From Callorhinchus milii (taxonomy: Eukaryota), in NCBI RefSeq assembly GCF_018977255.1, contig NW_024704765.1:5704001-5768000 (forward strand): a stretch of DNA of 64,000 bases. The letters are read 5' to 3'. The notes below the pieces were generated by a model that saw only the letters and a list, made by a program, of their open reading frames with translations, was not told the origin of the DNA and searched no databases. Shown in pieces: positions 126 through 60,359 of the stretch (the first letter of the stretch is position 1; each line of letters opens with the position of its first letter). A program made the position numbers and the translations under genes.

Positions 126-6910
<6,785 letters not shown>

Positions 6911-20209: not shown

Positions 20210-22598
20210 ATGGAGGTGAAATGGCCGTTTGTGGGAATGGCGTTCTTCATCCTGGTCTCCATCATCATGACCTGCTGTTTTGTCTGGCAGTACAAGCTCC
20301 CGAAAGAGGAGATAAGTACGTCCACAACAAGATTATGAATAGTAATAATCCTTAAGATTTAATTATTACAGCGATTTACAAGGAATATCCAGCACCGAGA
20401 CAGGGCACTGTGCCCAACAAGGTTATTAGTAATGAATTAAGACCCCCCCCACCCCGACCATTCCCCCCTGCACCCCCCCCCCCATCCCTATTTGCCCTTA
20501 ATGAGGACAAGCACTTCCTCCTTTGGCTGAGGGAGGGATACAGTCAGGTTCCTCGATGAATTAAAGTCCCGAGTTGCCTTTGGTGCAAATCAATGGAACT
20601 AAGTATCTCAGAGAACCTTCCTGTTGGACCTCACCTGCTCAAGTCCTCCCCCTGGTGGGTCGACCGAGATATTGACCTGACAACTCCACATACCCGGGGG
20701 GGCTGAGATACTGTTGCACTTGATACAGCGCCCGAGACGTCTCAAAGCGCTTCACGGACTACACTGTAGAGTGTAGTGACTGTGTGTTTTGTGCAGCAGC
20801 CGCAGAGTCCACGCAAACGGTCGTGGATTCAGTGGACCAATTTTTTATTTGCAGGGATTACGACCCCCCGGACAGTGATCCCGCTAATCCACTCACAAGA
20901 CAGTTCCTAACTTACTGCTGGGAAACAGAGACACGTGGAGTAAAGTTGCCTAAAGGTTTCGGTGCCACTCGCTTGTGAGACAAGCTCACTAACCGTGACC
21001 CGACTGGACTAAATGTATACTTGTGCGTATTTTTCAGGTAAATATTCCATTTCTAAAGCACCGGAACCCGTGCAGATGTGTCCACGCCATCCCCAAGCTG
21101 TGCCTCTGGAACATCCCATCCCCATCCTGAAAGAAGCCCTGGAAAAGGTTTGTAAAGGAAATCAAAAAAAATGTTTCGCTGAGCGAAGGCGGATCTCCCT
21201 CTGACTAGAGTATTGTCTATCCTCTGGTCACCTTGTCTGCCGTGAAGGCGACCAACAATGGCCGGTGAGAGAGCCATGAGCTGTGAGCCACCGTTACACA
21301 ACGTGAGTCTCTTCAATCATGAAAGGAGACATCTCAGAGGAGAACCTCAAAGCCATATATAAAAATAATAATCCTTTTAGGACACCCTCCTACCCCTCCC
21401 CCTACCCCTCCTTGCCCTCCACTCCTCCTGATCCTAACCACCAGCTCAGGTCCAAATCCATGAATGTCCAGCGCCTCCAACGTGAAAGGCACTTTACAAA
21501 TGTAATTTTGTTGTTGTTAGGTCAGGGGATCAAGAGATAAGGGGAAGGGGCGGGTAATTGGAGTTGAGGTATAGATCAGCCATGATCTTATAGAATGGCA
21601 GAAAAGGCTCGAAAGGCTGAATGGCCTCCTCCTGTTCCTATGTCAAAAGGAAGTCTCAAAGCGCTTTGCAGGAGTAAAGTGGAGTGACTGTGTGACCCGG
21701 CTGTCGTTTGCAGGTTGACATGTTTCTACGCCATCAGATACATCCACTCAGTCTGCCCTCCATCTCAACTATCGTGATTTACAACGACACCGTACTGTGG
21801 ACTGGCAACTTTGGCAAGAAGAACGCATCCGACGAGTTTTCACCCCCACCCAATGAATACACAGCGTACAGGTACCCCACCCGGTCTGTGTGATAATATA
21901 ATAATATAATAAGCCTGGCAGTTGATACAGAGCCTCATCACGTCTCAAAGCGCTTCACAGAATATACTGTAAAGTGAATTGACTGTATATTTTGTGGGCG
22001 AAACATGGCAGCCGATTGCGCACAGCAGCGTCCCACAAACAGTCATAGAGTGAGTGACCAATTTTCTTTTGGAGGGGAGATTATCACCCCTCAAAAAGCA
22101 GTCTGCCAATCGACTAACAACCGGGTTCCTACTTACTGCTGGTAAACAGATGCGGGTGGAGTAAGGAAACTTGTTTAAGGTTTGGCCCCGTATGTGGGCT
22201 ATAGGTAAAGAGCAGAGAATTGCATTCCCTGTCAGTGTGATTGTCTAACACTGGGGCCATGGTCCTCCGTCTAAAACCTTCTCCCTTCTTCTTCCAGGAT
22301 CGCGAGTCTCTCCAAGATCTTCCCAACTATTATGATGTACAAATTGTGGCAAGAAGGAAAAATCACCTCATTGGACGACCCGCTAACAAAATACATCAAA
22401 AACTTTACTGTTAAAAACCCGCTGGGAAACTCGAGAGAATCCGAACATCACTCCTTGGCGGATGGCCTGATGTTCCTGGAGAAGAGGGAGCCCTTAGTGA
22501 GAACATCAGCCGTCACACTGAAGAGAATGGCCAGTCAGCTGTCAGGTTGGAGACACATTACTTTCTCCCACAACACTATTCTTCAGTAAAACAATAGA

Positions 22599-22646
<48 letters not shown>

Positions 22647-24193
22647 CCTTGCATTTGATTTGGGGCTCGGGAGACATGTGAAGGTCAGTCTCAACACCTA
22701 CCTCATTCCGTCATCTTTCACCCCCCCCTCCCTAACGCCCCTCCTCCCCCACCCCGTCCTCCCGGCGTGAAAGGTTCTGTGTAAATGTAAATTTGTAACG
22801 TTTTGGTACCTTTGGGAAATATTGAAAAGCGGTGAAATCTTCTGCCAATATCCGCAGGGTTACCCAGACGTCTGCGGTCAACAAGTCTGCTGTGGAAAGG
22901 CAACACGCAGATGGCACTCAATCTACTACAGGACGACTTGCTGGTTGCTGACCCTGGCACAAGGTTTGAGTCAACCTTAGACCATTGGTGCTGGGACTTT
23001 CAAGCTCTGGCATTCTTGACCATAGAGCCGTAGATGTTTACAGCACAGGACGGGGGGTACGATGGGAGACGATGGGAAACGAGAGGTCAAGCAGTGGTAT
23101 ATTCTGTGAGGAGAAGCCAAAGGCCTACACATGGTTTGGTCTTGTTCATTAATGTTTGTGGAAGGTTTTGGAGGAAACGTTGAGGTGACCTCACTAACCT
23201 TTTCTCTCCTAATTCCCCAGATGCCACTACAGTAACCTGGCCTTCTCGCTCTTGGCTCACGTCCTGGCTGACAAGGTGGCCGAGTGCGACTATCAGCGCT
23301 GGGTCAGGGAGAACATTCTGGACAGAATGGGGATGGAGCACACAGGATTCGAGTTCACAGCCTCGGTCCGGTCACAGTTGGCGATCGGCGTTTACAGTAA
23401 CGGTCGTCCTGCTCAGCTGTACGACCTGGGCTGGTACCGCCCGTCTGGTCAGATGTATTCCACGGCTGCGGACCTGGCCAAGCTGGCGATGGTCTTCCTG
23501 GGAGCCTTCCACAAACGCCTCCTGGAGCCCGACGCCCTCAAGATGATGCTCACGCCCATGTTTAGATGTTCCGAGGAATACTTTGCCCGGAGGACAGGAA
23601 CGCCTTGGGAGGTCAACGAGCTGTTCGGCTATGACATCGTCAAAAAAGACGGCGACCTGGACGGTTACTCGGCCACCTTCTCGCTCGTCCCCAAACTCAA
23701 GCTGGGCTTCATCGTCCTGATGTCCGGCTCCCGGCCACAAGAGGAAGACCTGACCACCAGTGTTTACAATTACCTGATCCCAGCCATGGAATCCGCCTTC
23801 CGCCAAGCCAGGCGTCTCCTCTCTGCCCCGCCTCACCCCAAGCCCTACGTGGGCTATTACACCTACGCCAACCTGACCTTCTACGAGATCAAGGGAAGCC
23901 CAAGTGGAGTGTTGGTCATGCAGCAGTTTGGGCCTCACATCGAGGACCTGATCCCAGAGAGGTACAGGACCATCCAGTTGCATTATTTGGAGGACAGGGT
24001 GTTCCAGATCGTTTTTAAGAATGAATATCCCTGCGTCCTGCGGTTCAACACCGCTTCCGTCTCGCTGGAGGCTCAAGACGGGCAACTCTTTAATTTTTAT
24101 CAGTTCAACAGGAAAGGCCTGTCTCCCGGATTCGATGCTCCGGGTCTCAACACCTACAACGTTCTTCGAATAAATAAAAAGCCGAGGTTTTGA
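20210..24193 (+). CDS. LACTBL1: Beta-lactamase-like 1 (serine beta-lactamase/PBP fold with N-terminal hydrophobic anchor)
   Basis: Exons 20210-20315 (acceptor at 20171; frame open upstream of the ATG), 21038-21147, 21714-21871, 22298-22545, 22858-22963, 23221-24193, phases consistent. Motifs RIASLSK (SxxK), CHYSN (YxN), KKDGDLDG. N-terminus [28 protein letters not shown]. Position downstream of EPHB2 matches known vertebrate synteny. Confidence 0.9.
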
Positions 24194-25234: not shown

Positions 25235-25650
25235 TTGTTAAAAGAAACAGAGGGGAGGTGAGGAGACATTTTTCACACAGTGAGTTGTTGGGATCTGGAA
25301 TGCGTTGCCTGAAAGGCCGGTGGAAGCCGATTCCGTAACAACTTTTAAGAGAGGCGTAGATCATTATTTGGGGAGGACAAGTTTCCAGGGCTATGGGGAG
25401 AGAGGGGGGAGTGGGGTTGATCAGGGCTATGGGGAGAGAGCGGGGGAATGGGGTTGATCAGAGCTATGGGGACAGATTGAGGGAGTGGGGGTGATCAGGG
25501 CTATGGGGAGAGAGCGGGGGAGTGGGGGTGATGATCAGGGCTATGAGGAGAGAGGAGAGAGAGAGAGCGGAGGAGTTGGAAGCTCTTTCCAAAAAGCGGC
25601 ACAGACACGATGGGGCAAATGACCTCCTTCTGTGCTGTATAATTCTATGA
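25235..25650 (+). mobile_element. CR1-type LINE 3' end with an internal minisatellite expansion
   Basis: GAGGAGACATTTTTCACACAGTGAGTTGTTGGGATCTGGAATGCGTTGCCTG...GGGCTATGGGGAGAGAG (x5)...GGCACAGACACGATGGGGCAAATGACCTCCTTCTGTGCTGTA. Confidence 0.7.
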
Positions 25651-27073: not shown

Positions 27074-30000
27074 TCACATTCCCCCCGAATCAATCAGTGT
27101 CTCTCGTTCCTCGGAGCTCTTCGGCCGATACTGTAAAAACTGAGTGATTATCTGCAACGACTGCGTTCAGGAAAAGCATAAACTGTGTCAGAAAATCGCT
27201 GCGATCCAACACACAAACAAACAAACAAACAAACAAACAAACACACACACAAACAAATAAATACAAACAAACGCACAAACAAGACCAAACCAAACAGAAA
27301 TGGCAGGTGGAATGTTAAAGATCCCCTCGGCGCGATTTGAAAAGAGTCTCTCCCGTTTGATGTCCAGGCTAAAGAAACTCCCTCTCCCGCCCCCCGCACC
27401 CCCCACCCCACCCCATCAGTGTCAAGCGCTTCCGCCCCCCCCCCAGCCCGTTTGAATGGTGCGGTGTAAATACAAGTTGTTGTCGTTGTTGTTGTTGAGT
27501 AAAAGGATACGACCAGATCCAGTGACATGGTGCCGAGGCTGCCGAGTAGCCAGGGCAGGTGGTTCAGGATGTAGCTGCCCTCGCCTTGGCCCCTGTCCGG
27601 GTTCATCAGCAGAACGCTCACTCCGTACGTGGCGTTGCCCAGGATGACGCAGACGAAGAGGAAACACGAGATGCCTTCTGTCGACTTCCGCTTAAACTGA
27701 GACCACATTTGTTTTTAAAAAAACACAAAAGATTTTTTTTGACAAAAAAACACCTCCCCCAAGTCTCTGGAATGCTTTGCCCCCCACCCCCCCCCCCCCA
27801 CCACCTCGCTAGCCGTCTCTTCAAATCACCACCTGCTGACTTTCTTCTTTGACGGTACCTTGGGTCACCTCCCCTCCCGTTCCAGCTCCCCGTCAAACCC
27901 CCAACTGCTGTCGAGCGCTGGGGCCTCTGCCCCTATGAGGGGGTTATTGACCCTAACCCTAAGTTACTATTGTCCTGGTTGATTTTATAGAACAAGACAA
28001 ACAGGAATTAAAAGCAGAAAACTGTTTGCTGACGTCCTTCTCTGCTTCCTTCCAAACTACTCCAGCATCCCCCCACCGCCCCCCCCCCTCACCCGGAGAG
28101 CATCCCCCACCCCCTGGAGAGCTTCCCCCCCCCCGGAAACTTACGTTTGTGAGGATCTGAGGAATCCTGGATGACAGGTACAGAACCGCGGAAATCGAGC
28201 CGATCGCCAACCCACAAATGTTTTTGGTGTCAATCTGCGGGTCAGAAGGTTCATCCATCAACAGCGTGAAGACAGACAGTGAACAGGGCAAACTAGTGTG
28301 GGCAATGGTGAGGGGAGGGGGGGCCCGGCAGGGGGTTTGGGGGGGGGAGGCCCGGCAGGGGGTTTGGGGGGGGGCAGGCAACACAATCGATAAGTAACAA
28401 CCTCCCCACACACGCNNNNNNNNNNNNNNNNNNNNNNNNNNNNNNNNNNNNNNNNNNNNNNNNNNNNNNNNNNNNNNNNNNNNNNNNNNNNNNNNNNNNN
28501 NNNNNNNNNNNNNNNNNNNNNNNNNNNNNNNNNNNNNNNNNNNNNNNNNNAAACAGCGATGGAGCGAGCGACCAATTTTATTTGGGGGATTGTCAGCCAG
28601 AGGATCTTTATCATCCACCTGAACAGGCAGACGGGACCTCGGTTTAACATCCCACCTAAAGGCCTGCAGACCATGTGTGTAGTGTGTGTGTAGCGTGTGT
28701 GTAGTGTGTAGCGTGTGTGATGTGTAGCGTGTGTGATGTGTAGCGTGTGTGTGGTGTGTAGCGTGTGTGTAGTGTGTAGCGTGTGTGTAGTGTGTAGCGT
28801 GTATGTAGTGTGTAGGATGTGTGTAGTGTATAGTGTGTAGCGTGTGTGTTGTGTGTAGCGTGTGTGTAGTGTACACTGGCCATTGGGAGTCTGGGATCAG
28901 TCGGAGGCCGTGGTAAGGTGAGCACTGACCTTGTTGGCAGAGGGAGAAGCCACGGCCAGGAGAGATCGCCTGAGCACCTTGGGGCTGTCCAGCCACACAG
29001 AGTCCACTTTGCCGCCAGGAATCAAGGAGATGGATCCCAGAATAGTGAACGTCACAGCGATATTGATCAGACCTTCATCTGCACACAAACAGGTTGTAGA
29101 TTATCCCTTGGACCAGCCTCGCGACACAACCGAACATGCGGGTTTTCGAAACAAACACGGAATACTTGAACCGACGGCTCGGTCCACAAGAAATGTCAGA
29201 TTTCAGCTTCCTATTGTTTCCCCCACGTTGGGGAAAAATGATTTCCCACCAGGTTAAAATGCGGGAAACCCTGGATTAATGCGGGGAAGTGATCAATATC
29301 TTACATTAGTTGAAACATTTTCACCCACAGTTCACCAGGTCATTGAGGAGGAGACCATCACAATTAAAAGGGAATAAGGTTGATATTTTTTAGTTCTGTT
29401 CCTGCACTAATAGCAGAGCGGTGAGGCCGAGGGGATTAAAATAAACTGTCTCCACTAGCTCACTCCTCCAGTTAGTTTCCAAAACAAGTTTCCCCCTTCG
29501 CTCCTCCCGTCCTGAAGGCATTAGACTTCTCTTTCCCTCCTGGATTTGTGTTGTCCACATTGTCACACGAAGATTGGCAACGCCAACCATTCTTAGGTCA
29601 GGGGAGTAGTTAGCAGTTAGTATAGGGTATAGGGCGCTCTGAGGGAACGGGAACAGTTGTGTAGAAGCTGCAGCTGTGTGTGTCAGGACAGCATCACTCA
29701 CAATGTCTGTGTCGGTGCTTCATCTTGTAATACGTGAACATGCCAATCATCACCAGGTCTGCCAGGACATAGTACATTGCGGTGTACGTCTGCAAGAGAA
29801 TCAACAGGAGCAAGGCTGTGAGCTGGTCTCTCCCACACGCACGCGCGTGTGCGTGTGTGCGTGTGTGTGGGTGGGTGTGTGGGGGTGGGGAGGGGGGAGT
29901 GAGGGTGGGTGGGAACGAACTGTAATTAAATCTGTTCCAATTAAGACCCAATCTTTTTGCTCACTGAGTCATGAACCAGCACAGCCCCTGTCTATGCTGA

Positions 30001-33137: not shown

Positions 33138-34025
33138 TCCCACAGCCCTGATCAACCCCACTCCCCCCACTCTCTCCCCATAGCCCTGATTAACCACACT
33201 CCCCCCACTCTCTCCCCATAGCCCTGATCAACCCCACTCCCCCCGCGCTCTCCCCATAGCCCTGATCAACCCCACTCCCCCGCGCTCTCTCCATAGCCCT
33301 GATCAACCCCACTCCCCCCGCGCTCTCCCCATAGCCCTGATCAACCACACTCCCCCCGCTCGCTCCCCATAGCCCTGATCATCCCCACTCCCCCCCCCCA
33401 CCCATAGCCCTGATCATCCCCACTCCCCCTGCTCTCTCTCTCCATAGCCCTGATCAACCCCACTCCCCCGCTCTCTCCCCAGTCCTGATCAACCCCACTC
33501 CCTCCCCATAGCCCTGATCAACCCCACTCCCCCGCTCTCTCCCCACAGCCCTGATCAACCCCACTCCCCCATTCTCTCCCCACAGCCCTGATCAACCCCA
33601 CTCCCCCGCTCTCTCCCCACAGCCCTGATCAACCTCACTCCCCGCTCCCTCCCCGAAGCCCTAATCAATACCATTCCCCACTCTCTCCCCACAGCCCTGA
33701 TCAACCCCACTTCCCCCACTCGCTCCCCACAGCCCTGATTATCCCCACTCCCCCGCTCTCTCCCCACAGTCCTGATCAACCCCACTCCCTCCCCAGAGCC
33801 CTGATCAACCTCACTCCCCCCCCCCCATAGCCCTGATCATCCCCACTCCCCCGCTCTCTCCCCACAGTCCTGATCAACCCCACTCCCTCCCCATAGCCCT
33901 GATCAACCCCACTCCCCCACTCCCTCCCCACAGCCCTGATCAACCCCACTCCCCCACTCCCTCCCCACAGCCCTGATCAACCCCACTCCCCCACTCCCTC
34001 CCCACAGCCCTGATCAACCCCACTC
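33138..34025. repeat. ~37-bp minisatellite (AGCCCTGATCAACCCCACTCCCCCGCTCTCTCCCCAT), roughly two dozen copies
   Basis: Direct tandem array. The unit is the reverse complement of the array at 25388-25550. Confidence 0.95.
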
Positions 34026-34250
34026 CGTTATTATAATAAGACTTTACCATTGAGTAACTTAAGTTTGAAAAGGAAACACTTTAGCTGAGCAGCAGCAGCA
34101 GCAGCTGAGGGAGGGAGGGAGTGAGAGAGAGAGAGAGAGAGAGAGGGAGGGAGGGAAGGGGAGAGGGGAGGAGGGAGAGTGAGGGGGAGAGAGAGGGGGA
34201 GAGCCCCAGTGTGTCTGTGTTCTGTGGGGATGGCACCAGGAAGTGAGTGG

Positions 34251-34771: not shown

Positions 34772-35372
34772 ATGTGATGGTGATGGTGATGATGAAGCTG
34801 ATGGTGATGATGATGATGAAGCTGATGGTGATGGTGGAGATGATGAAGCTGATGGTGATGATGATGAAGCTTATGGTGATGATGGTGATGAACTGATGGT
34901 GACGATGATGATGATGAAGCTGATGGTGATGAAGCTGATGGTGATGGTGAAGATGGTGATGAACTGATGGTGATGGTGATGGTGAAGCTGATGGTGATGG
35001 TGATGATGAAGCTGATGGTGATGGTGAAGATGGTGATGAACTGATGGTGATGATGATGATGAAGCTGATGGTGATGATGATGATGATGAAGCTGATGGTG
35101 ATGATGATGAAGCTGATGGTGATGGTGAAGATGGTGATGAACTGATGGTGATGGTGATGATGAAGCTGATGGTGATGATGGTGATGATGAAGCTGATGGT
35201 GATGGTGATGAAGGTGATGGTGAAGATGATGATGGTGATGAAGGTGATGGTGAAGATGGTGATGAACTGATGGTGATGATGATGATGATGAAGCTGATGG
35301 TGATGGTGAAGATGGTGATGAACTGATGGTGATGATGATGATGAAGCTGATGGTGACGGTGAAGCTGATGAC
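34772..35372. repeat. (GAT/GGT)n trinucleotide-based compound repeat immediately upstream of PINK1
   Basis: GATGGTGATGATGAAGCT units over ~600 bp. Confidence 0.95.
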
Positions 35373-35432
35373 GCGGCCCGGGCGGTTGCTATGGTGACCC
35401 GCCGCTCGCTGCGGCCCCGCCCACTGGCCGCC

Positions 35433-38400
35433 ATGTTGCTGCTGCGGCGGCTGCTGTACCTCGGGCTGCGGCTCCGGCCGGGCTTCCGGGCCCCGCGGCT
35501 GCCGGTGCCGGGGCCGTGTGTGCGGGCCCCGGGGGGAGCCCGCGACCCGCCCCGCTCCCGGTACCGCTATTACCGGGTGTCGGTGACCGGCCTGGCCGCC
35601 CGGTTGCGGGGGGGAGGCCGCGGCCTCCTGCTGGCCTTCGGCCTGGGCCTCGGGCTGGTGGAGCAGCGGCGGCGGGTGGAGGAGGAGGCGGGCAGCCGGG
35701 CGGCGGCGTGTGAGGAGGTCCGGGTAAGAGGAGCCGGGCCCCGGGGGGGGGGGGACACGGCCCCGGGGGGACACCGCCCTGGGGGGACGGGACACGGCCC
35801 CGGGGTCAGGGGTCACAGGCAATTAATTCCCCCTCAATAAATAATAATAATTGGGGGTCACTCCCCCCCCCCCCCCCGACCTGCGACAGTTTGTGGGGAC
35901 GTCGGTCGCTGGGGGCGATGGGGCTGCCGGCCTCCGCGTGCACACGCACAGTCACTACACTCGACTGCCAAGCGCTTTTTCCCGGGACGTCCGGGCGGGA
36001 ACGTTGACGGTCCAGCCCCCTCGGGCGGGGGCGGGGGGGTGGTGGGGGTGCGCTCTCCCGACCCCGACGCCCACCCGCCGCGGCCCCGAATGGCCCCCCT
36101 CCTGCTGCGCCCCGAAACCCCCCTCCCCCCGGGGTTGATTCCCTGACGAGCCCGCGGGGCGGGGCGGGGGTTAATCCGAAACTCACCCTTGACCGTTAAA
36201 ATCCCTTTCTGTCTGTGTTTACCGGGATTAACCCCTCGCTCTTTCTCTCTACCCCCAACCCCCTCCCCAACGCCCGCTTTCTCCCCCAACCCCGAACTAC
36301 CCCCCCCCCACCCCCACTTCTCCAGTTGCTGTTTAACGCCCAAAAAAAGAAATACCAAGACTTCCGCGGCTTGCGGGCGCACGGCTACCGGCTGGAGGAT
36401 TACCTCATCGGGAAGCACATCGGGAAGGGCTGCAACGCCGCCGTGTACGAGGCCGCCATCCCCGGGGCAGGCCACCTGCCGCACGGGAGAACCGGGGCCG
36501 GGGAGGGTGGGAGCCCGGCACGGGGAGACTCCCGAGCAGTAGAGGGTGGGAGCCCGGCACGGGGAGACTCCGGAGCAGGAGAGGGTGGGAGCCCGGCACG
36601 GGGAGACTCCCGAGCAGTAGAGGGTGGGAGCCCGGCACGGGGAGACTCCCGAGCAGTAGAAGGTGGGAGCCCGGCACGGGGAGACTCCCAAGCAGTAGAG
36701 GATGGGAGCCCGGCACGGGGAGACTCCCGAGCAGGAGAAGGTGGGAGCCCGGCACGGGGAGACTCCCGAGCAGGAGAGGGTGGGAGCCCGGCACGGGGAG
36801 ACTCCCGAGCAGTAGAGGGTGGGAGCCCGGCACGGGGAGACTCCGGAGCAGGAGAGGGTGAGAGTGTGGCACGGGATAGATCGAGTCGTCTGCAAGGAGA
36901 AACGGCACCAACTCAACCACAAAGTGAACTGAAGCAAAGTACCTGCTACCCACTGGCGGTGAAGATGCTTTGGAACTTAACCGTAAGTCACTCCCAGTCC
37001 AGCGGCTCTTGGTTGAATTATTGGGGTTGGTTTTACCTGGAGGGACAGGGACCCTCGTGTTGAGAGCGAAACAGGATAGGATTGACGTTCTTCTGGCAGG
37101 GAGTGATCATTGTGGAATGGCTCGTTCCAGAAAGCGAGGGGTTAGCTTGGTTCGTTTGTCTTGCGTTAATCTCTGGGGTCAGAAGGCTGTAGGTTCAAGC
37201 CCCCGCCTCAGGACTTCGAGCTTGCAGGTTAGGACGATGTTTCAACATCGTCCTAACCTGCTCTTGGGGAAAGCACCACATTGTTGCTGCGATACGAGAG
37301 ATTAAACCAAGATCCTGCTGACACTAAAGATCCTGTGACACTATTGGGGAAAAAAACAAGGAGTTTCTCCCAGTGTTGGCCTCCCAGTAGATAAGATAGA
37401 TTCATCTCATGGCTGTTTGTGGAACCTTGTGTGTAAATTGGCTGCCACTTTCCTGTGAATACACAATCACTGCCTTTGATAACAAATACAATGCAAAGCC
37501 CCGGCATTTTATGTTGCTTGAGATCTGTTCACTGTTCCTTTACAGGCAGACTCATCCTGTGATGCCATTCTGAGGACAATGGCCCAGGAGCTGGTCCCAG
37601 CCACTCCCAGCGCCTTAACCGGTGTGTTTGGAAAATCTGCTTCTACCGGGTTAGTCATGCTCTGCTTCCTAGTTATCTACAGACTGTGGCGGATTCACTC
37701 TGCACTGATTTATTGGTGACATTTTGTCTTATCTAATAGGGGAAGGGGAGAAATCAAGACACTTTTTTTTAGTCTCTTCTCTGTTCCAGTGAAAAATCTG
37801 GCATTGGCAGATCCACGAAAGATGGACAGACTGTGGCTGTGAAGTTTCTCCTGCAGCGTCGTTTGTGGCCTAATCTCTTGTGTTTGTGTTGATCAGCTCA
37901 GACATCCGTAAAAGAAAGAAGATGAAACCGCACCCAAACATTATCCAGGTCATTCGAGCATTCACAGCAACGTTCCTCTCTTGCCTGGAGCCTGGGTAGA
38001 GTATCCCGATGTCCTGCCGTCCAGAATTAATCCCAGAGGGATCGGACGCAACCGCACTCTCTTCCTGGTGATGAAGAAGTAAGTGTTTGGGCTTATTCCA
38101 CACCTACGAGGTCTGCTGTTTCTTCAGGAAATGCAGGTTGAAGAATTATCTATGTTATCTTGTCTGCACTCTTACCATGGATGTCTGTACTATTGGCCCT
38201 GGCTTCATTGTTTGATGTCTTTGCTTCTCCAACTCTCTGCGAGTTTGACTCCTGAGGCAATTTTCCCATCTAGGTGCAACTCTGTTTTAAAATGGCTGGT
38301 GGGGGGGGGTTTCCAGCACCGAATTGATGAGAGATCTAACGCCTTTGTGCTTTGTGCACCAAGCTATCCCTGCACCTTGCGGCAGTACCTGAGCATCTCT

Positions 38401-40395
38401 GCCCCCAGTAGTCGCTGGGCCACACTGATGATCCTGCAGTTACTGGAGGGAGTGGACCATCTGGTTCAGCAAGGCATCGCACACAGAGACCTCAAATCGG
38501 ATAACATCCTCGTGGAGTTTGATTCAGGTAATTGAAGCAAGAGGGGAAAAATCAGGTTATCCTTATATACAGTACATATATGGGCAGACACTTTCACAGC
38601 TGTAGGAAAGACAAGATACCAATGTTCTTCTGGAGACCATATTAAAGCTAATAATTTGGGGGAAGACCTGGCAAATGGGATTAATGGTTACCTCTCGCAG
38701 ACAACCTCAAAATACTGAGGTGCGGAGGCAGCTTAAGCAGGCTTCTGTCTTCTGTGCTGTAAAATTCTGTTTCTCACTTGCACTTTTATAACACCTAGAA
38801 CTTCGAAATCTCTCAAAGTGCTTTACAGTAATAACGTAGGTGTGGTGACTGTTTTTTGTGGACCAATGCAGCAGCTGTTTTGCGCAGAGCAAGGTCCCAT
38901 ACACAGCCTTGAGGTGATAGACCAATGTTGTCTGGAAGGTTGTTGGCCAGGGAGTGGGGAGGAATTCTCTTCTTTCAGATAGTGGAGGCCTGTAGGGCGA
39001 GTGAGTCCCACATTCCCACCGCCCTGTGTGTGAAGAAGTTTACGTGGATTAAACAGAATTGAATAATTTCAGGGGTAATCAATTTTTGCTTTCCTTCTCC
39101 GTGTAACAATTTGAATTGCTCTCCTCTCTTCACTCGACTCTGGTGGATTACAAGTGGGGTGCCCTCGGTTGGTGATCACAGACTTTGGCTGCTGCCTGGC
39201 AGATGAGAGGCTGGGAATGAAGCTTCCTTTTACCAACATGTATATCGACCGGGGAGGAAATGGCTGCTTGATGGCTCCAGAGGCAAGTGCTTATTAAATA
39301 CCAAACAATAAAATAAACACTATTGTGCTTCTCAATAGTTTCTGTTTCTTGCAGGAGTTGCCCCCACATAAATAATTCCATCAATTTATGTACGTGTGTG
39401 TAACTGATGAACGAGAGAGAGAGAGAGAGAGAAACAGCAGTTTACATTTATACTGACCGAGTCACGAGAAACTCACAGACTGACATTAATTAGGAACGAA
39501 GTGAATATATTGTCTGAGACTTGCTTTGATCTGTCTCTGTCACGTACTGAGGGGATTTGTTGGTGTGTGTTTCAGGTGTCTGCAGCCAACCCTGGCCCCG
39601 GCAGGTCCATCAACTACAGTAAGTCGGACGCCTGGTCCGTGGGGGCTTTGGCCCATGAGATCCTAGGGCTGCCCAACCCCTTCTACAGACAAGGAGGAGG
39701 GCATCTGGAGAGCAGGCACTACCAGGAGACTCAGTTGCCAGCCCTGCCCGACTGCACTCCCCACCATGTGCAGTTTGTGATCACACTCCTGCTCCGTAGA
39801 GACCCCAAGAAGGTGAGTTACAGTAGCTAGAAAACCATCGGCCACAACAGCTTCTCACAGTGACTTCGGCCACCCGCCTACCTCCACCCTCCCTGCCCTC
39901 CAAACCTCCAGATCCCAACCCCCAGCTCGGGTCCAAATCCCTGACTGCCCATTGCCTTGGGACGTCCTTGTGACGTGAAAGACTCCGTGTAAATGTCCTG
40001 TGTTATTGTTGTCGTGAATGTCCAGTTGGCACTCGGGGTGTGCCCCAGCCTGTACCGTGGCCTTCAGGAGAGGAGAGAATGGGGAGCACAAAGCTAACCT
40101 GAAGAACTAACGGGAGTTTCATTTGATCTTTAAGCGGCCGACGGCTCGAGTTGCTGCTAACATGCTACACTTGCACCTGTGGGGGGCCGAGCTACTGACC
40201 CCTGCTCCGAGCAGCCTGGAACAGATGTTGTCCTGGCTCCGCTGCCAAACTCTGCTCACCTTTCTGCAAGTCGGGAGGAACCGCGACAGCCCGGTGGAGA
40301 CCGAACTGAGGAGATGTTTCTTGGCGAATCTCAGCTTCGAGGAGATGGATGAGGCGATGGAGCTGCTGCTGCTGTGCGGAAACCGCAGCCAGTAA
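35433..40395 (+). CDS. PINK1: PTEN-induced kinase 1 (mitochondrial Ser/Thr kinase); apparent 1-nt frameshift in exon 4
   Basis: GCCGCCATG Kozak at 35433. Exons 35433-35723, 36326-36982, 37546-37649, 37897-38078, 38364-38527, 39155-39282 (GC donor), 39576-39812, 40135-40395. Arg-rich presequence, [61 protein letters not shown]. Confidence 0.95.
36503..36885 (+). repeat. 39-bp coding minisatellite in PINK1 exon 2 (9 full copies + 1 degenerate)
   Basis: GAGGGTGGGAGCCCGGCACGGGGAGACTCCCGAGCAGTA, encoding [13 protein letters not shown]. Confidence 0.95.
37140..37500 (+). mobile_element. Degenerate DeuSINE-type element in PINK1 intron 2
   Basis: GGTTCAAGCCCC B-box, GAGAGATTAAACCAAGATCC..AAAGATCCTGTGACACTATT..GGAGTTTCTCCCAGTG, TGTAAATTGGCTGCC. 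Confidence 0.55.
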
Positions 40396-42496
40396 CCGCA
40401 GCGCGGGGGTTAGTTAATAATCCGAGATTTGTAGGATAACCTTGCAGCTATTGTAGTGGGTCTGAATCTGAAACATCGCACTTTTAAACTTACTCTCAAA
40501 TACTGAAGTGTGGAGTCGGAGCTTAAACAGCAGCAGCAGCAGGAGACAAAGAAATAACTTGCATTGTTCCTCGCTCCATTGACGTCAAGTCTCAAAGCAC
40601 TTCAGTCATTACTAACAAATGTAGGTATTGTAGGCAAATGTAACAGACATAATAAATTAGTTGTTGCACTTACCTGCAAATGAACAGAGCATATAAGAGT
40701 ATTACTATAACAACAACTTGCATTTATGTAGCGTCTTTCAAACAGGTGGAGCACCGGAAAGCGCTTCGAGAGATTTTGACGTGATAAGATGCTATAAAAA
40801 TGCAGGTTCTGTCTTGTCTCGCTAATTGCACACAGTGGAGCAGTGAAACAGCCAAGGATGGAAAGATGTTTTGGAGAATTTCTTCGCTTAGAAAGTGATA
40901 GTGAGTCGTTGGCACACAAGTGTTTTGGCAGCACGTAACTAAACATGAGGCTTGGTCGCATGCGCACTTTAAAGTAAATTCAAGGTTAGGAGTTCAAGCT
41001 AGCAGCGTGTCTGAGCCACGCTGTAAGGGTTGCTGTGACAGTCAGGGATTTACACCAGCTTGGATCCAAATCCCTGACTGTCCAGCGCCATGGGACATCC
41101 TCCCAACGTGAAAGACGCTGTGTAAATGTAATGTGTGGTTGAAGGGGGAATGTTAAAGGGTTTGGGGGAGCAAGTAGGAGATTAGATTGGCTCCTTTGGG
41201 AAAACACACAGTGCACAATGGTCTGTTTCTTCATATAACTTTGTTAAATCTAACCAGAATGTGGTTCTTATTATTCTTCTTATTGCATATTGTGGACTTG
41301 GAATAGTTACGAAAGTTTTCAGTTTGGCTGCCTCTGTTAATATAATTTAAATAAATTTAGAGCGATTTTGAGCATTGCTGGTTTGAATCCTCGCCTCTTT
41401 TGCCTGTTCTGTGAGAAGGTCACAGTTTTACCACCACAATCAAATGCATAGATACTGATTTGATATAAACCTCAAGAACAGTTCCCAGCACACATTCACT
41501 GAATTCTGTTTGTTTATATTGGAAAGCTTTGATGCATGGTTGGTTAGAGCAGGTAATTCAGTTGTTAAACAATTGAAAGCAGTGGAAAGAGCAGGAAAAT
41601 CAGTTCAAACATTGGAGTTAAAGTCCAGATAAATGATTATCATCAGTTGCAATAACAAGCAGCTTTGCCTCCAGTCTGGGGCAAGGTGGGTATTTATTGT
41701 GGGAGGGAGGAGCAAACTCCGTTCTCAGAAACTTTAAAAGCACACACAACACAGCAAATACAAAGCCAGCGAGCGAACTTGAGAGGTGCAGAGAACAGCG
41801 CAGAGTGGCTTAAAGAGCAAATCAAGTGCAAAGGAAGAATTCAGGACTTTCAGGTAAGTGACTGAATTACGTTGCTACTGCTGTACATCCTGCGATTGAA
41901 AGGCAGGTAAATTCAGAACGAAACTACATCAACACTATTTCAGTGAGCAAATAGTGTAGAACAGGCTCCCTCGATGGAGAGATGGTTGAAGCAGGAATTG
42001 TTGATTCTTACAAACACAGATTAGATAGTTTTAGGAATTAACGTTATGGGACATAGTACATATGTGCATGCGACCACCAGGAAGGTGACCTCGATGGACC
42101 TTGGTCTTTTTTCGCCCGGCATTTCTTATGTTCTTATGTACTAACATGCGGGATGATCCAGGGTTTTCTAACCTTTCCACATCCTTCATTGAATGATGTG
42201 GGTACGTGCCATGGTGAAAGTTTACGAAGCCAAAAAAAGTTTTGCAAAACTTTGCCAAAGAACTAAAGAATAAAAACACAGAGGAAGCGAGTTGAAACTT
42301 ACAGGGTTTCAAGTAGAACTCTTCACAGTTCAAAGCTCTTCGCAGAATCGCCTGAGGTGACGTTTAGACACATAAAACTCTTTAAAAATGCAAATTTCTT
42401 TCTTATGTTGTATTTTTTATTCTTGCTAGTTGCTCCCGATAAATAGATGTAAGTCTCTATGAAAGTCCTTTTGTGCTGGAGGCCGAACTAGATAAA

Positions 42497-42569: not shown

Positions 42570-43906
42570 ATTATATAAATCTTTAATGAGGTCTCAAAGC
42601 AACAACAACAAAATTACATGTGTATATGTGTATTTCAAGTCGGGAGGATGTCCCAAGGTGCTGGACAGTGTTTCGGACCTGAGCTGGGGTCGGGATTGGA
42701 GAGGGTGGAGGGTGGTGGGGGGGTGAAGTACCTGCCTTGTGACTTAGCTCTGAGGGTTTGCTGCATTAGAGAAGTCTCATTGAACTCATTCCGCCCACCC
42801 AATGCAGTCAAATCACTTTACAGTATAGCGTGTGAAGCGCTTTGATACGTCTCCAAGACATGATAAGGCGCTCTATCAAACACAAGGATTGTTATTATTT
42901 TACAACCAATGCTAATAGTGGTTGCATTGCGGTCAAAGGTATTTTGAATAAGCCTTAAACAATGGAGCTTTCTACATATCTTCCCCCATTTATTCAGTCT
43001 TTAGTTAAATAAAATAAGTGTGGGAGGGGGGAGACGTAAGGGCACTTTCCCTGTAAGAGTTCCATGTCTATTATAAGCCATCACGTGGTTCTCTAGCCTC
43101 TCAGGTAACCTCATTTCGTTACGGAATTACACTGTCACTGACTGTTCACTCCTGTTACGAGGAACTCATTTAAGAAACAGGTCAATGCTGTCTGGAAGGA
43201 TGAGATCAAACGAGCTGGATGGCCTTCTTCATCCAAATCTCTCTTGTGGTTTAAAGAAAAGCTCTTGACAAATCGAGTGGTGACCACCAAGCAAGAAAAA
43301 TTACAGAATTGAGGATTTTGACCAACGGCAGCAAAATATGTCAAATAAATATGGTTTAGGAGGTTTTTGAAGCGATTCAGAGCAGTGAGAGGGCGAGAAG
43401 AGGTTCCAGAGAGGAGCGGAAGGTACGGTCACGGATGGCGGAGCGAAGGGAATAGGTTTGCAAGCAATAGATCAAAATCAAGAAGTGAAGGATAGAGGCT
43501 GGATTGCAAGGCTGGAGAAGATTGCATAGGTATGGGTGGGGGGGGGGGGGGCTTAAGAGCACTTATCAAGCTCAAGTGACAGAAGACGTGGGCAGCTGTC
43601 AGGAGGAGGTCACTCTCCTGTTCCTCTCAGTCAGGAAATTGGGGAGCGTTTAAATGAACTCAATGCACTGCTGCTTACGTACAGGACTAAATACAGCCAA
43701 GGCCCGACTGTGTTTCTGGCGATGTTGGAATGTCAGTAAGAGCCCTATTTGGAATCTAACACTCCTGGGTGGGGTGGGGGGGGGGATGCAGGGCGTGAGT
43801 GTGTGCCGGGTGGAGGGGTGGGTGGGTGTGGAACTCCAATTTGCACAACCTCCCGCTCGCAGCAGCTGACAGCGTGACCCACGTTGTTGTTCTATCCTCA
43901 GTAGAC

Positions 43907-46900
43907 ATGGCGAGACTGCTCCTGCGCTATTCTGGGTCGCTGCTGAAGTCGGGACCTCTCCGGGACCTGCCCCTCTCCCTGCCTCAGCGAGCAGCCTCCT
44001 CCTCCCGCTTCAACATGCCCAAGAGGGCCCAGGAAGTGGCCAGGCCGGTGGGAATCTGCTCCATGATGAAGCTCCCGGTGCAGGACTCCCCCCAGGGACT
44101 GGACGCGGCATTCCTCGGCATCCCGCTGGACATCGGCACCAGCAACCGTCCGGGAGCCAGGTGAGCAACACAGCGGCTGGGATCAGAAGGTCACTCGCAA
44201 AGAGATTCTCAGGACGGCTGGACTGGGCTGGGCTGGGGGCTAAGTTGGTGGCGAAGCCCTGGAGGTGGGCAGAGGGTGACTGTTGAGCACTCTCCCCTCC
44301 GAGCCTGTAATTACCTGTAAAATACGAGACCCTGTGAGAGGCCAGCCTGTGTGAAGCGCGCTCTACAAATGCAAGTTGCTGCTGTTGTTTTAGCGTTACG
44401 GCTTATTATCATTATTATTATTATTATTGCTACAACAATGGTTTGGGTTTGGATCTAGGTTCGGTCCTCGTCACATTAGAGGAGAGTCTGTGATGGTGAG
44501 AGCTTACAATGGGGGCACAGGAGCCTCTCCCTTTGAATCTTTGATGGTGGCCGACATCGGTGATGTTAACGTGAACGTCTTTGACCTAAAGGACAGCTGT
44601 GACCGGATCCGAGCGTATTTCAAGAAGGTCGTCTCAACAGGCTGCGTCCCACTCACCATGGGTACGTACACAAGCCATCTGAGAACAGGGCAGATATGCA
44701 CCTCCACTCCCCCCCACCCCTGCGGTACCTGGGCTTTATGTGGTCTCATTACATTTCAGGCCCTGACCCCCCCCCCCCTCCAACGTGGAGGTAATCTTAC
44801 ATGTTGTTCACATGATTACACAATTGATTTGGATGAAGGCCCTTTAGCCTCTCTGATCTCATCCTCACACAACACCCGCTCTAACCCCCGCTCCCCCCCC
44901 CACCACCACAACACTTCCCCCCACCACAAAAACACTGTATCAAATGTAAGGATTATTACTATTATTATTACTGTCCCGGTGCACTCTAATCACCACGGTT
45001 TTCTCTCTCGTGCCTCTGGTCTCCAGGTGGTGATCACACCATAACCTACCCCATCCTGCAGGCAATGGCAGAGAAGTGAGTATGTGTGTAAGACAGATAC
45101 CTTTGTTATTTTAGATAGGATAGGAAGCTTACCAAAGGCCCATTCGAAAGAGGATCTTGAAGGAGGCAAGGGAGGGGGGAGGCCAAGGGACTGTGGGTGT
45201 GGGGGCAGAAAGGCTGAAGACTCACTAAAGATGATGGGAGGCTTCTTTTCCAGTCCGCAGCCAGGTGTCTGAGACACATACGGAAACCCATCACTTCAAT
45301 ATAAGACAAAATTTGGTTCCTCAACCCACGACTGTTTGTGGGGATGCTTTCTGTGCGCGATTGGCTGCCACGTTTTGTCCACAAAATATGCAGTCAATTC
45401 CCTTTACAGACCATTCTCTGAAGCGGTTTGAGACGTGATAAGGCGCTGTGTCAAATGCGAGGATGATTATTATTACTGTGTTTACTGAGTCTTCAAACCA
45501 AACAGTCGGAGGCGGCCAAAGCTGACCTAACGGCGTGGCTTTCCTGTGACAGGTACGGGCCGATGGGGCTGGTACACGTGGACGCTCACGCTGACACGGC
45601 AGACACGATGCTGGGATCGAAGATCGGCCACGGGACCCCGTTCAGGCGCGCTGTGGAGGAAGGGCTGCTGGACTGCAAGCGGGTGGCGCAGATCGGACTC
45701 CGCGGCTCCACGTACGATCCCGAGGGTTACGCCTGGAGCAGAGAGCAGGTTTGTCCTCTTTTTATTACGATCGTAGTAGAGGATCCTACAGCACGGGAGG
45801 AGGCAATTCAGCCCGTCGTGCCTGCGCCAGCTCTTAAAATAGGCTTGTCCGACAAGTCCTGTTAAGCGCTCGGAGACGCTGCCCCACCAGGAGCCGCGAT
45901 ACAAACAAACACAAGTTGTTGTTGTTGTCCACCTCACAGGGTTTTCGAGTTGTGACTGCTCAGGAGTGTTGGCTCCGCTCCCTGGTTCCTCTCATGGAGG
46001 AGGTGAAGCAGCAGATGGGAGACGGTCCCATGTACATCAGCTTCGATATCGACGGCATTGACCCGGCCTTCGCTCCCGGGACAGGAACCCCAGAGATCGC
46101 CGGCCTGTATCCCAGCCAGGTAACCCTCACTGACGGGCAGTAATAATGTTAGTAATAATAATAATCCTAGCATTGATACAGCGCCTCATCGAGACATCTC
46201 AAAGCGCTTCACAGGATACATTGCAAAGTGTAGTGACTGAGTATTTTCTGGGCGAAAGGCGGCAGCTGATAGCAAGGAACTGGCTTCATCACAGCGACTC
46301 ATCAGGCCGTGGGGATGAACTGAAAGCACGGTGAAAGAGGTGGGCCTCGGGCTGGGCGAGGGATAGAGAGGGGTAGTCAGGAAGGGAGTGTGGCAGGGAG
46401 GGAGGGAGGGACTCAGAATGGAACTCCAAAATGATCATGACACCCCCCCACCAAACTGTTTGCTCATCACAGGCTTTGGAAATCATCCGTGGCTGTCGGG
46501 GGATGAAGGTTGTCGGCTGTGACCTGGTGGAGGTGGCGCCACAGTACGACACCACAGGTGGGTGAACGTCGCTGGTTTATTTGGGGTTTGGCCGCCGTGG
46601 AGGACAGGGCGGGCGTCGTGAAGAGAGATGGGGTTTTGCCCCGGGACCATCCTGAACCTGGGGGCGATTGGTGTTGGTAATCACTGGGCGGGGGTGGGGG
46701 GCCAGGGTGGGAGTAACGGTGTGCTGTTTTTTTCGGGCTCGGCTCCCACTCTCTGCCACCATTTAAAGTGTCGCTGTCGCTTTGAGGCCAAAGGGTCCCG
46801 AAAGGTACTGTTAAACAGCTCGCACCAAAGGCCACTTGGGTAGATACTGCGCAGCAGCTGGAGTCTGTGAGTCCTTTCTGTTTTAAGTCCTTTCTGTTTC

Positions 46901-57200: not shown

Positions 57201-59003
57201 TTAAAGCCGAGCTTGGCTGTGTTCGTTAGCGTCCAGTCAAACACTGAGGGGCTCGAGCCCCACACCAGGTCCTGAAACTCTGGAACACTTTCCCTCTAAC
57301 CCTCCACTTTGCCCCTTCCTTCCCCATCTTCAGGTCGTGCCTGAAGATCTTCCTCCTTCGGCCATGCCGACTGTGACCTTCCTCCCACCCCGGCTGGGTG
57401 TCGTGCTCTGCGACTGTCGAGCGCTCTGGGACTCTGCTCTGCGTGAGGGGGCGCGGTGCAAATGCAAGTTGTTGTTGTTGAGCGAGTTCATTTTAAGTTA
57501 GACTGACAACAGCTTGTGCGTATGTAGGATCGTTCAAACAAGGCGAAGAAGTGGCAGAGCTAGGGAGGAGCACGAGGACAACAAAACGTGCGAGCAAGTG
57601 AACCTACCAAGTGGTTCCAGCTCCAGCACCACCTCCCTCCACACCGGCTCAATGTGAATGCAGCTGAAACACCAATCCGAGGTCACTTTAATGAGGTATG
57701 GCTTGCGGTAGCTGTCCGGCAGGATCTCATTCATGTACTGGGAGAAGTGCAGCAGGTACTTGTCGTCGAACGAGTCATGGCCGGAGTTGAACTGAAAGTG
57801 AAAGGGGTCATCGAAGAAGAAGCTCTCGTAGTTGTGGAAACCCCGGAAATGGTGAGGGGCGAAGGTGTGCTGGCTTTCTGCCTCTCCATATCTGTCAAAG
57901 TTCTGTCTCTTCTCCTCATTTGAAAGAATCTGAAGCAAGAATCAACAACAACAACCACACGTTACATTTACACGGTGCCTTTCACGTCGGGAGGACATCC
58001 CAAGGTGCTGGACAGTCAGAGATTTGGACACAAGCTGGGGGTTGGGATCAGGAGAGGGAGACAGGACAGGGAAGGTAGGGGGTAGGAGGCTGACCGCAGG
58101 AGTGGTCGAAAAGGAGGGTCTTGAGACAATAAAATAACAACCCGTTTCCTCAAATACATTTTAAAAAATGAATGAATATAAATATAATAAAAATTTCACT
58201 GGATACAGCACCTACAATGCTTCACAAGTATTTGGGGACAGATTCCATGCACAAAATGAACAGAAACCAGAGAAATGAACTGACTATTTGGAAACTACAA
58301 GCCAGTGAACTTTGAATTAATTAACAATTAAAAAGGAAGAGTTAGTTAGTACCTGATATGCTTTACCAATCTGAATAAACCGGTCTTCTGCCTTGGGGTC
58401 CCTGTTCTTGTCGGGGTGCCTAAAAGGGATATGTTGAGTGGCATTAACGTGTAATAACTATTTGTACTGGCTAACGCTTTTAAGTAGACCCTCCCATACA
58501 GAACAATGCTATTCAAATGCTCTCCAGGCCAAACCCCTTATAAAGCAGCAGTTTGGGTCCGTCAAACGACAGCACCGTCCAGGTCACAAGATCATCACTG
58601 ACATCATGACCGCGCAAGTAGACAGGAAACTAGCAACCGCTCTCGCAAGCTTTTACAGTAGATGCTAGGACACCACTGGAGAGGGGGAAGGCCATCTGTG
58701 GCTGCATACATCACCCAGCGAGCAACAGAAGAGTGCCACGGTACGCAGCGTTAGAAGATGACCCGCGCTACACGGAGGCACATTACAACAGGGTCAACCT
58801 GTAGTTAGGATCGCGCATGCATACCACTCGCGGGCCAGGCGTTTGTAAGCCTTCTTTATGTCTCCCTGGGTCGTCGCTCTGTTCACTCCGAGGACTTTGT
58901 AGGGGTCAAATTCGATGGCTTGGTGCAGAGGGCTGTTCAACAGCAACACGATGGCCAGAGCCACTGGAAACCTTCCAAAGTACAACTGCCACAAGCCGGC
59001 CAT
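50375..59003 (-). CDS. DNAJC16: DnaJ homolog subfamily C member 16 (ERdj8; J domain, thioredoxin domain, TM)
   Basis: Minus-strand exons 59003-58825, 58419-58353, 57929-57608, 57133-56949, 56283-56179, 55558-55400, 55043-54913, 54556-54373, 54010-53822, 52897-52821, 52705-52625, 52279-52169, 51612-51445, 50804-50375, phases consistent. Signal peptide, FDPYKVLGV..REWHPDKN, SDWCFSCIHIEP, TM REMMPLISLLFS, C-terminus LQRYYVPLWPDLD*. Confidence 0.95.
54059..54210. other. Assembly gap
   Basis: Run of N. Confidence 1.
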
Positions 59004-59673
59004 CGCGAAAACAATCTCAAAACGCTCTGCCAGATACAAAGGATGGGTTACGGCGATTTGCAAAGCAAATAAAAGATTCCAGCACAAAAAATAACCAAGT
59101 AGCAGAGAGACGATTATCCCGACCAATCGTAACCGACCAACTATGCGGATAAGCAAATAACGAGGGTTACGGGTAAATCACACGCAATGCTAATTAGCTT
59201 CGGTGCTAACTAATAACTAATTGTCATCAGGAGTTTATGTGGTCGCTGCAGTTCCACAATACGACAGCTCTTCACCTCTAAAACCCCCCACTCTCACTCT
59301 CTCTCTCTCTCTCTCTGACTCGAATTGCGTAAACATATTGTGCGAGACTTGCCTCGGGTGTGAACCTGATTTTATTTCTATCTAACCTGAAAATCACATC
59401 CGGGTTTGGATTTAATTTATCCTTCAGAAGTAAAACTGGAACGAGCGTTACCCGATCCAATCAACTCAACCTCGGATCAAGGGAGTTATTTAAGGGACAT
59501 GGGGAGAAAGCGGGGAATTGGAATTGAAAGGATTAGTTGAGGTGCAGATCAGCTGTGATCTAATTAAATGGCAGAACAGGCTCGAAGGGCTGAATGGCCT
59601 CCTCCTGTTCCTATAAATATCGGCTGAAACTCTCTGTTGCTGATCTGTCATAGACAGGGGGACAGGGATTGTG

Positions 59674-60274
59674 CCCCAATCACACACTATTACTGACCCC
59701 AATCACACACTATTACTGACCCCAATCACACACTATTACTGACCCCAATCACACACCATTACTGACCCCAATCACACACTATTACTGACCCCAATCACAC
59801 ACTATTACTGACCCCAATCACACACTATTACTGACCCCAATCACACACTATTACTGACCCCAATCACACACTATTACTGACCCCAATCACACACTATTAC
59901 TGACCCCAATCACACACTATTACTTACCCCAATCACACACCATTACTGACCCCAATCACACACTATTACTGACCCCAATCACACACTATTACTGACCCCA
60001 ATCACACACTATTACTGACCCCAATCACACACCATTACTGACCCAAATCACACACTATTACTGACCCCAATCACACACTATCACTGACCCCAATCACACA
60101 CTATCACTGACCCCAATCACACACCATCACTGACCCCAATCACACACCATCACTGACCCCAATCACACACTATTACTGACCCCAATCACACACTATCACT
60201 GACCCCAATCCCACACTATCACTGACCCCAATCACACACTATCACTGACCCCAATCCCACACTATCACTGACCC
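59674..60274. repeat. 23-bp minisatellite (CCCCAATCACACACTATTACTGA), ~26 copies, probable DNAJC16 intron 1
   Basis: Direct tandem array. Confidence 0.95.
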
Positions 60275-60359
60275 CCCTCTCCCTCTCACACGGTGATGTT
60301 GATGAGCGGCTGTGGGGGGGCAGACATGTCCCCCTCCCCCTCCCCGGGCCCCCGGACTC

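Follow-up and report, generated by a model that had tools for sequence, protein, structure and literature searches.

An in-frame 39-bp tandem repeat within insertion 1 of the PINK1 kinase domain of the elephant shark, Callorhinchus milii

PINK1 is a kinase whose gene carries mutations in inherited Parkinson's disease. In the human enzyme, insertion 1 (Ins1, about residues 174–215) lies between the Gly loop and the β3 lysine; it is 42 aa long, has low sequence conservation and contains no repeat. Two groups of described systems resemble an enlarged Ins1. The DRD4 48-bp and PER3 54-bp repeats and the PRNP octarepeat are coding VNTRs in disordered loops, and the PDGFR/KIT kinase inserts and the SRPK spacer are large, largely disordered inserts that split a kinase domain without blocking its folding. 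At the other extreme is insect PINK1 (Tribolium, Pediculus), in which Ins1 has contracted: in beetle PINK1 it is nearly absent and is disordered in crystal structures, and active TcPINK1 has an 11-residue remnant, Lys182–Pro192. One preprint places Ins1 near the back-to-back dimer interface in low-resolution beetle models. According to PMC5679756, human PINK1 without Ins1 (180–209) still phosphorylates ubiquitin and Parkin in cells, and bioRxiv 2023.03.31.534916 and bioRxiv 2026.09.05.749644 also support the dispensability of Ins1. In these deletion tests, transiently expressed protein was shortened by about 30 residues, which is different from adding 120–460. The tests of Ins1 that we found in the literature are deletions or short-loop swaps. 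bioRxiv 2023.03.31.534916 also gives phosphorylation of human Ins1 at Thr185 and Ser187 and low confidence for this segment in AlphaFold models. The role of insert 1 has been stated as still to be elucidated (bioRxiv 2021.08.05.455304), and passages of two HSP90–PINK1 papers yielded nothing on Ins1.

The locus described here differs from human PINK1 in both the size and the makeup of the loop. Ins1 is 166 aa in C. milii, +124 aa relative to human PINK1 measured between the same anchors, and it holds nine 13-aa units; in the white shark it reaches 500 aa. Like the DRD4, PER3 and PRNP repeats, the C. milii array is a minisatellite that keeps the reading frame, includes variant units and lies in a flexible segment, and it likely works in the same way, although it sits inside a kinase N-lobe and variation between individuals is only hinted at. 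The PDGFR/KIT and SRPK inserts differ from it in having docking or localization roles, other positions in the kinase and no recent tandem repeats. Insect PINK1, the opposite extreme to a repeat expansion, shows PINK1 working across a wide range of Ins1 lengths.

The window, a stretch of 64,000 nt from C. milii, contains an eight-exon PINK1 gene on the + strand at 35433–40395. The coding part of exon 1 (35433–35723) encodes an N-terminus which, by eye, is rich in Arg and Leu and has a hydrophobic stretch, candidate mitochondrial targeting and transmembrane features; an additional in-frame ATG at 35391 makes two candidate starts. Exon 2 (36326–36982) carries the Gly loop, Ins1 and the β3 Lys. 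Exon 3 (37546–37649) has Ins2 and the Ser228-equivalent site, a Ser six residues past the β3 Trp (human Trp222). Exon 4 (37897–38078) is short by one base in the assembly near 37967, a base that is present in all four sequencing runs considered below. Exon 5 (38364–38527) has the HRDLKSDN motif, exon 6 (39155–39282) has DFG and APE and ends in a GC donor, and exon 7 (39576–39812) is followed by the coding part of exon 8 (40135–40395), which has the C-terminal extension and the stop. In the restored frame, all of the kinase motifs were found, GKGCNAAVY at 130, LAVKM at 307, HPNI at 363, HRDLKSDN at 452, DFG at 476 and MAPE at 506. Ins2, Ins3 and the C-terminal extension are present, as exons 3–8 align with other PINK1s over 364 columns and are spliced in run X13. 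The best protein matches of exon 2 are C. milii PINK1 models (98% over 27% of the exon), and its PDB matches are human PINK1 only, aligned on both flanks of the array. By every feature that could be checked in the sequence, the gene is a PINK1 orthologue. Two minor features of the gene may be recorded here. Intron 6 (39283–39575) is a GC–AG intron whose GC donor is used in 3 of 3 spliced runs, and a polymorphic 3-base in-frame deletion in exon 7, at 39691, is seen in X13 and at about half of the depth in X1.

The array consists of nine 39-bp units of 13 aa each at 36503–36853 on the + strand, about 72% GC, followed at 36854–36892 by a degenerate tenth unit in which the resemblance persists for the first 22 nt. 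Tandem Repeats Finder reports 36503–36875 with period 39, 9.6 copies, 94% matches, 0% indels and a score of 648. The full units differ from each other at 0–4 of 39 bases, a likeness far beyond chance. Five types can be distinguished among them, arranged in the assembly as V,G,V,V,Q,D,R,V,G. The array thus has the properties of a minisatellite (head-to-tail units of 10–60 bp with high identity); it is exonic, in frame and kept in the mRNA as borders and internal pieces. It is located in the middle of the loop, with the Gly-loop strand on one side and the β3 lysine (LAVKM) on the other. A preliminary description made from the sequence alone had reported nine near-perfect units adding about 120 aa between the Gly loop and the catalytic Lys, with an SP site and an RGD in each. 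The added length agrees with the computed +124 aa, and the nine units are in frame, but the 13-mer given there is exact in only four of the nine, and the SP and RGD motifs, present in all nine full units, are both missing from the degenerate tenth. A four-tract G-quadruplex pattern was searched for in the array and was not found. All three antisense frames over the array are open, but this was set aside, since any given frame is open in 70% of shuffled units. The best matches of the repeat region in the search of representatives were of low identity, the top one being a Streptococcus hypothetical protein, and were discarded as chance repeat likeness.

Is the array retained in spliced transcripts? 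Four runs, X1, X5, X8 and X13, were compared with positions 36776–40500, an interval that opens at unit 8 and so takes in the last two units only. X5, X8 and X13 were taken as RNA since their contigs skip GT–AG introns; this status is a guess, being unrecorded in the run records. The contigs of the spliced runs contain the right border of the array in three runs, internal units in three and the left border in one. X13 contig 9 starts exactly with unit 9 (36815) and continues, spliced, across exons 3–8, and contigs of both X8 and X13 contain the core–spacer–core sequence. In an X5 contig, the left flank of exon 2, as a loose end, is joined to a unit, showing that the donor-like site of unit 1 is read through, and an X5 contig with three diagnostic bases of units 5 and 6 has a depth of 1,991, compared with 7–17 for intron contigs. 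The tandem repeat inside Ins1 is thus coding, as had been proposed. Exon 2, described as 657 nt, open throughout and with intact splice sites, indeed has AG and GT ends, and its 3′ junction (36982>37546) is present in contigs of two of the three spliced runs, X5 and X13.

The preliminary description had itself named two outcomes that would count against it, splicing out of the repeat as a cryptic intron and expansion of the array by the assembly. In favor of the former, eight of the nine units contain a donor-like G/GTGGG, no contig listed for X1, X5, X8 or X13 covers the array from end to end, and an exon 2–3 joint is missing from the X8 listing, where the contig reaches 31 nt into intron 2. 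(X8 has no substitutions relative to the window and may therefore not be independent.) There is no pyrimidine tract within the array, however, and both borders and internal units are found in spliced contigs, so that this objection fails. The frame of exon 4 raises a related concern that had passed unremarked, because the exon as assembled shifts the frame, giving a stop at aa 385, as might be expected of a pseudogene that had gathered the repeat. None of the four runs has the frameshift, since each carries an extra base at 37966/37967, which is G in X8 and C in the other three. The site is a G/C polymorphism (Ala or Gly codon) flanked by a G and a C, and the base was probably dropped by the assembly. 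When the base is restored, as an unknown letter, a 674-aa open frame without internal stop is obtained, and five UniRef C. milii PINK1 models read through the same site. The PINK1 gene of C. milii is intact and spliced, and we regard a cryptic intron or a pseudogene as extremely improbable. In all six public C. milii PINK1 models seen, the halves of exon 2 are left unjoined, and it is the array in this exon that accounts for their fragmentary state.

The number of units is less certain than their existence. Expansion by the assembly fails as an account of the array itself but may affect the exact count; the figure of nine applies to this assembly alone, and alleles may differ. The array contig graph was simulated with k = 31 and compared with the contig ends of the runs. 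The ends in X13 (a 69-nt piece, 36776–36844, and a flank from 36815) are reproduced by an array of V units closing with one G unit, and the X8 flank likewise begins at 36815, fitting the simulated V(n),G array. The ends in X1 (a 68-nt piece and a flank from 36831) fit an internal G unit, V,G,V,G. The simulated nine-unit array yields neither the 69-nt nor the 68-nt piece. Furthermore, the V-spacer contig has about 0.4 times the depth of a flanking contig in X8 and X13, and about 1.1 times in X1, compared with the 3 expected from nine units, although contig depth is not copy number, and graph cleaning and GC dropout can mimic simpler arrays. These data, together with the one-base error of the same assembly 1.1 kb from the array, could mean that the assembly has inflated the count, or that nine units represent a single long allele, and that typical alleles are shorter. 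We consider this rather doubtful, as the succession of the five types is irregular, X5 confirms both of the rare types, Q and D, and another assembly has at least four units; in any case it would affect the size of the repeat and not its existence. That other assembly is represented by UniRef A0A4W3HH10, which has four units, the fourth differing from that in the window, and then leaves the exon. The term VNTR, as used in the preliminary description, is thus justified as to a coding tandem repeat, while the variation between individuals is hinted at only by the contig ends and by unit 4 of A0A4W3HH10.

The enlarged loop is predicted to be disordered. The C. milii repeat is composed of 87% disorder-promoting and 4% order-promoting residues, and AlphaFold gives it a pLDDT of about 47–52, in a model of the exon-2 fragment alone with a pTM of 0.19, to which we attach little weight. 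For the catshark, Ins1 (158–413) is predicted with a pLDDT of about 30 and no secondary structure, while β1–β3 and αC are still formed. The alignments are shallow in the repeat (for catshark a mean of 6.4 rows per column), so that low pLDDT values are weak evidence.

Relatives were collected from homology searches in which PINK1 of C. milii and of Mustelus served as queries (best 120 of 981 matches and best 120 of 523, respectively) and from cluster look-ups, which gave 20 named elasmobranch species. In all 20, among the matches listed and as predicted proteins, Ins1 is long, at 84–500 aa. By contrast, Ins1 is 26–61 aa, with a median of 42, in bony vertebrates (161 of 172 nonchondrichthyan proteins with both anchors, 11 being unmeasured, in a sample rich in birds and teleosts), and none of these 161 measurable sequences has a repeat, the best period score being 6 compared with 83 for the window. 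A further 27 PINK1 matches from the search of representatives, mostly exon-2 fragments, have Ins1 of 29–51 aa. No other holocephalan PINK1 was found among the homologue matches listed (best 120 of 981 and of 523) or in the search of representatives.

In sharks, Ins1 contains an acidic 11-aa unit with the computed consensus GASEGDISYPL, the last unit ending in the Y-P-L that opens β3. A nonrepeat stem with an S-L-S-F-x-I-L-like motif is kept in all elasmobranchs; it is about 70 aa long in sharks, where in most cases the array follows it. The predicted proteins have 2 copies in Heterodontus (horn shark), about 4 degenerate copies in carpet sharks (the counter gave 2 for Stegostoma), 6 in Heptranchias, 9–10 in Cetorhinus (basking shark), 10 in Mustelus, 14 in Pristiophorus, 17 in Scyliorhinus torazame (two records on different contigs, both 17), 18 in S. 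canicula and 38–39 in Carcharodon (white shark), whose protein is 1,002–1,013 aa in two full isoforms. In Carcharodon carcharias (P0147, P0297, P0298), Ins1 is 489–500 aa with a net charge of about −77. A full-length PINK1 of 649 aa with 6 units, on a contig of 2,096 nt, fits a transcript. In rays, the 11-aa unit is present in 0–2 copies, and a separate short repeat, of 8 aa, occurs in Mobula. The isoform models of Carcharodon, like those of Cetorhinus, are exactly one unit apart, which may reflect small introns predicted within the array. In Narcine bancroftii, several 'PINK1-like' models (P0013, P0302, P0303), one of them of 259 aa, are located on one scaffold and may be a local duplication.

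The shark repeat resembles that of C. milii in being an in-frame tandem array in the same loop, rich in S, G, D and E, with interspersed variant units. It differs in period and sequence, is strongly acidic (net charge of Ins1 up to −77, compared with −4 in C. milii) and is anchored at the C-terminal end of the loop, whereas the C. milii array is in the middle. Homology of the 13-mer and the 11-mer, an idea formed by eye, was rejected, since the best local score of 16 does not exceed that of shuffled sequences (p = 0.64 and 0.47). The unrelated sequences suggest that the loop expanded independently at least twice, in the chimaera lineage and in the shark or elasmobranch lineage, and perhaps a third time in Mobula. 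Latimeria PINK1 (P0090) has the longest Ins1 that we saw in a bony vertebrate, at 61 aa. It contains a motif similar to that of the elasmobranch stem, which suggests a longer ancestral Ins1; the chimaera does not have this motif.

A tree of the core from β3 onward, with 37 rows, places the window PINK1 as sister to the 20 elasmobranch rows with support of 100/99, and the identity to Heptranchias is 71% over 364 columns. HRD, DFG, APE and HPN are retained in 21 of 21 chondrichthyan rows. White and basking sharks differ by about 29 units (38–39 vs 9–10), while their terminal branches in the core tree are 0.013 and 0.0098, which puts the two cores about 0.02 changes per site apart.

We suggest that the array is probably the product of in-frame minisatellite growth in a tolerant, disordered loop, near-neutral in effect and leaving kinase activity likely largely unchanged. 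A GC-rich 39-bp unit would have been duplicated in the weakly constrained Ins1, and slippage or unequal crossing-over would then have multiplied and shuffled the units. As the kinase would be lost on a frameshift, whole-codon gains and losses alone would survive, giving units of 13, 11 and 8 residues. Since the loop would bulge outward between strands β2 and β3, the N-lobe could still fold. The copy range of 2–39 among sharks, over which the catalytic core barely changes, supports near-neutral growth. Counting against it are the phosphorylation of human Thr185 and Ser187, the position of Ins1 near the dimer interface in the beetle models and the confinement of repeats to cartilaginous fish. 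With 0 of 161 bony-vertebrate sequences having a repeat, tolerance alone fails to explain why repeats recur only in this group. The pattern of the shark unit, kept across lineages, and the elasmobranch stem with its motif could also mean constraint.

It is therefore necessary to consider whether a long, disordered Ins1 was selected in cartilaginous fish as a length-tunable module that sets the activation threshold of PINK1, acting as a phosphorylation sink, a solubility bristle or a brake on import or dimerization, where length and disorder count and the motif does not. Ins1 is at least 84 aa in 21 of 21 named chondrichthyan species, among the matches listed, and at most 61 aa elsewhere; there are at least two independent origins within one clade; and the shark units are rich in S/T-x-x-D/E sites, with up to 44 in the white shark. 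The coelacanth, which like sharks retains urea, has the longest Ins1 among bony vertebrates, although this is a single case (n = 1), and its stem-like motif, common to sharks, means that the length may be ancestral. The phosphorylation of human Ins1 also favors a selected module, but copy number varies about 19-fold among sharks, a clear array is mostly absent in rays, and the chimaera unit is near neutral in charge and has no S/T-x-x-D/E site. The contrast of 21 species with 0 of 161 reflects only two or three origins, and deletion of human Ins1 was of little effect in PMC5679756. On balance, selection of this kind is unlikely. The fuller form of the idea, in which Ins1 has repeatedly been made into a module of about 85–500 residues that governs how stable PINK1 is or how readily it is activated, possibly suiting cells rich in urea and TMAO, seems to us somewhat less likely again.

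A different kind of function would lie in the motifs themselves. RGD is an extracellular integrin ligand, and the kinase domain of PINK1 is cytosolic, which argues against a role for RGD here. The nine SP and nine RGD motifs of C. milii Ins1 might nonetheless be a specific proline-directed phospho-array or a binding surface, since unit variants never hit S-P or R-G-D and both motifs occur jointly in 0.4% of open shuffled units. The motifs were chosen after the fact, and with only five variable positions among the 39 their sparing is unremarkable. Elasmobranch Ins1 has no RGD and 0–2 S/T-P sites, and RGD occurs in 1 of 206 other Ins1 examined. We consider this role very unlikely, and the functional multi-phosphosite loop of the preliminary description is not borne out, as the motifs are not shared with elasmobranchs and, in PMC5679756, deletion of human Ins1 leaves phosphorylation of ubiquitin and Parkin. 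Near-neutral growth of the loop is still the reading that we favor.

In cartilaginous fish, the N-lobe of PINK1 has thus been enlarged naturally, by about 40 to 460 residues, with at least two independent repeats and a conserved core. This is the opposite of the published deletion tests and constitutes a natural test of what Ins1 does. If the expansions are neutral, they show how much bulk is tolerated by the PINK1 N-lobe, by TOM import and by the dimer, and Ins1 is likely a safe site for a tag; if they are not, Ins1 can be assigned a function. A length-tunable module, if true, would give Ins1 its first function and would mean that a kinase domain contains a dial on mitophagy set by repeat length. 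To a PINK1 specialist, an N-lobe insert of 500 residues would come as a surprise, as would the presence of two independent repeats in the same loop. RefSeq and UniRef already contain the expanded shark proteins, and in a literature search with most subscription journals outside its scope we found no report of a shark or chimaera PINK1 repeat. The main text of a preprint on PINK1 evolution in 48 species, whose species table is in the supplement, has no mention of shark, Callorhinchus, chondrichthy or cartilaginous, and the insertions are omitted from its alignment figure.

The neighboring genes were assigned by Pfam, with 110 of 284 ORFs scanned. They are tyrosine-kinase exons (3658–6243, + strand), a β-lactamase-fold gene, likely a LACTB-like host gene (22275–24190, +), a PQ-loop gene (27151–27714, −), an agmatinase-like gene of the arginase family (43799–46140, +) and a DnaJ domain (58797–59177, −). 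The region is rich in tandem repeats. A GAT/GGT-rich repeat of 600 bp (34774–35371) ends about 20 bases upstream of the ATG at 35391, a 37-bp minisatellite is found at 33139–34026 (24.7 copies) and again, with its orientation reversed, at 25386–25554 (4.5 copies), and 26 copies of a 23-bp unit form an array at 59674–60275.
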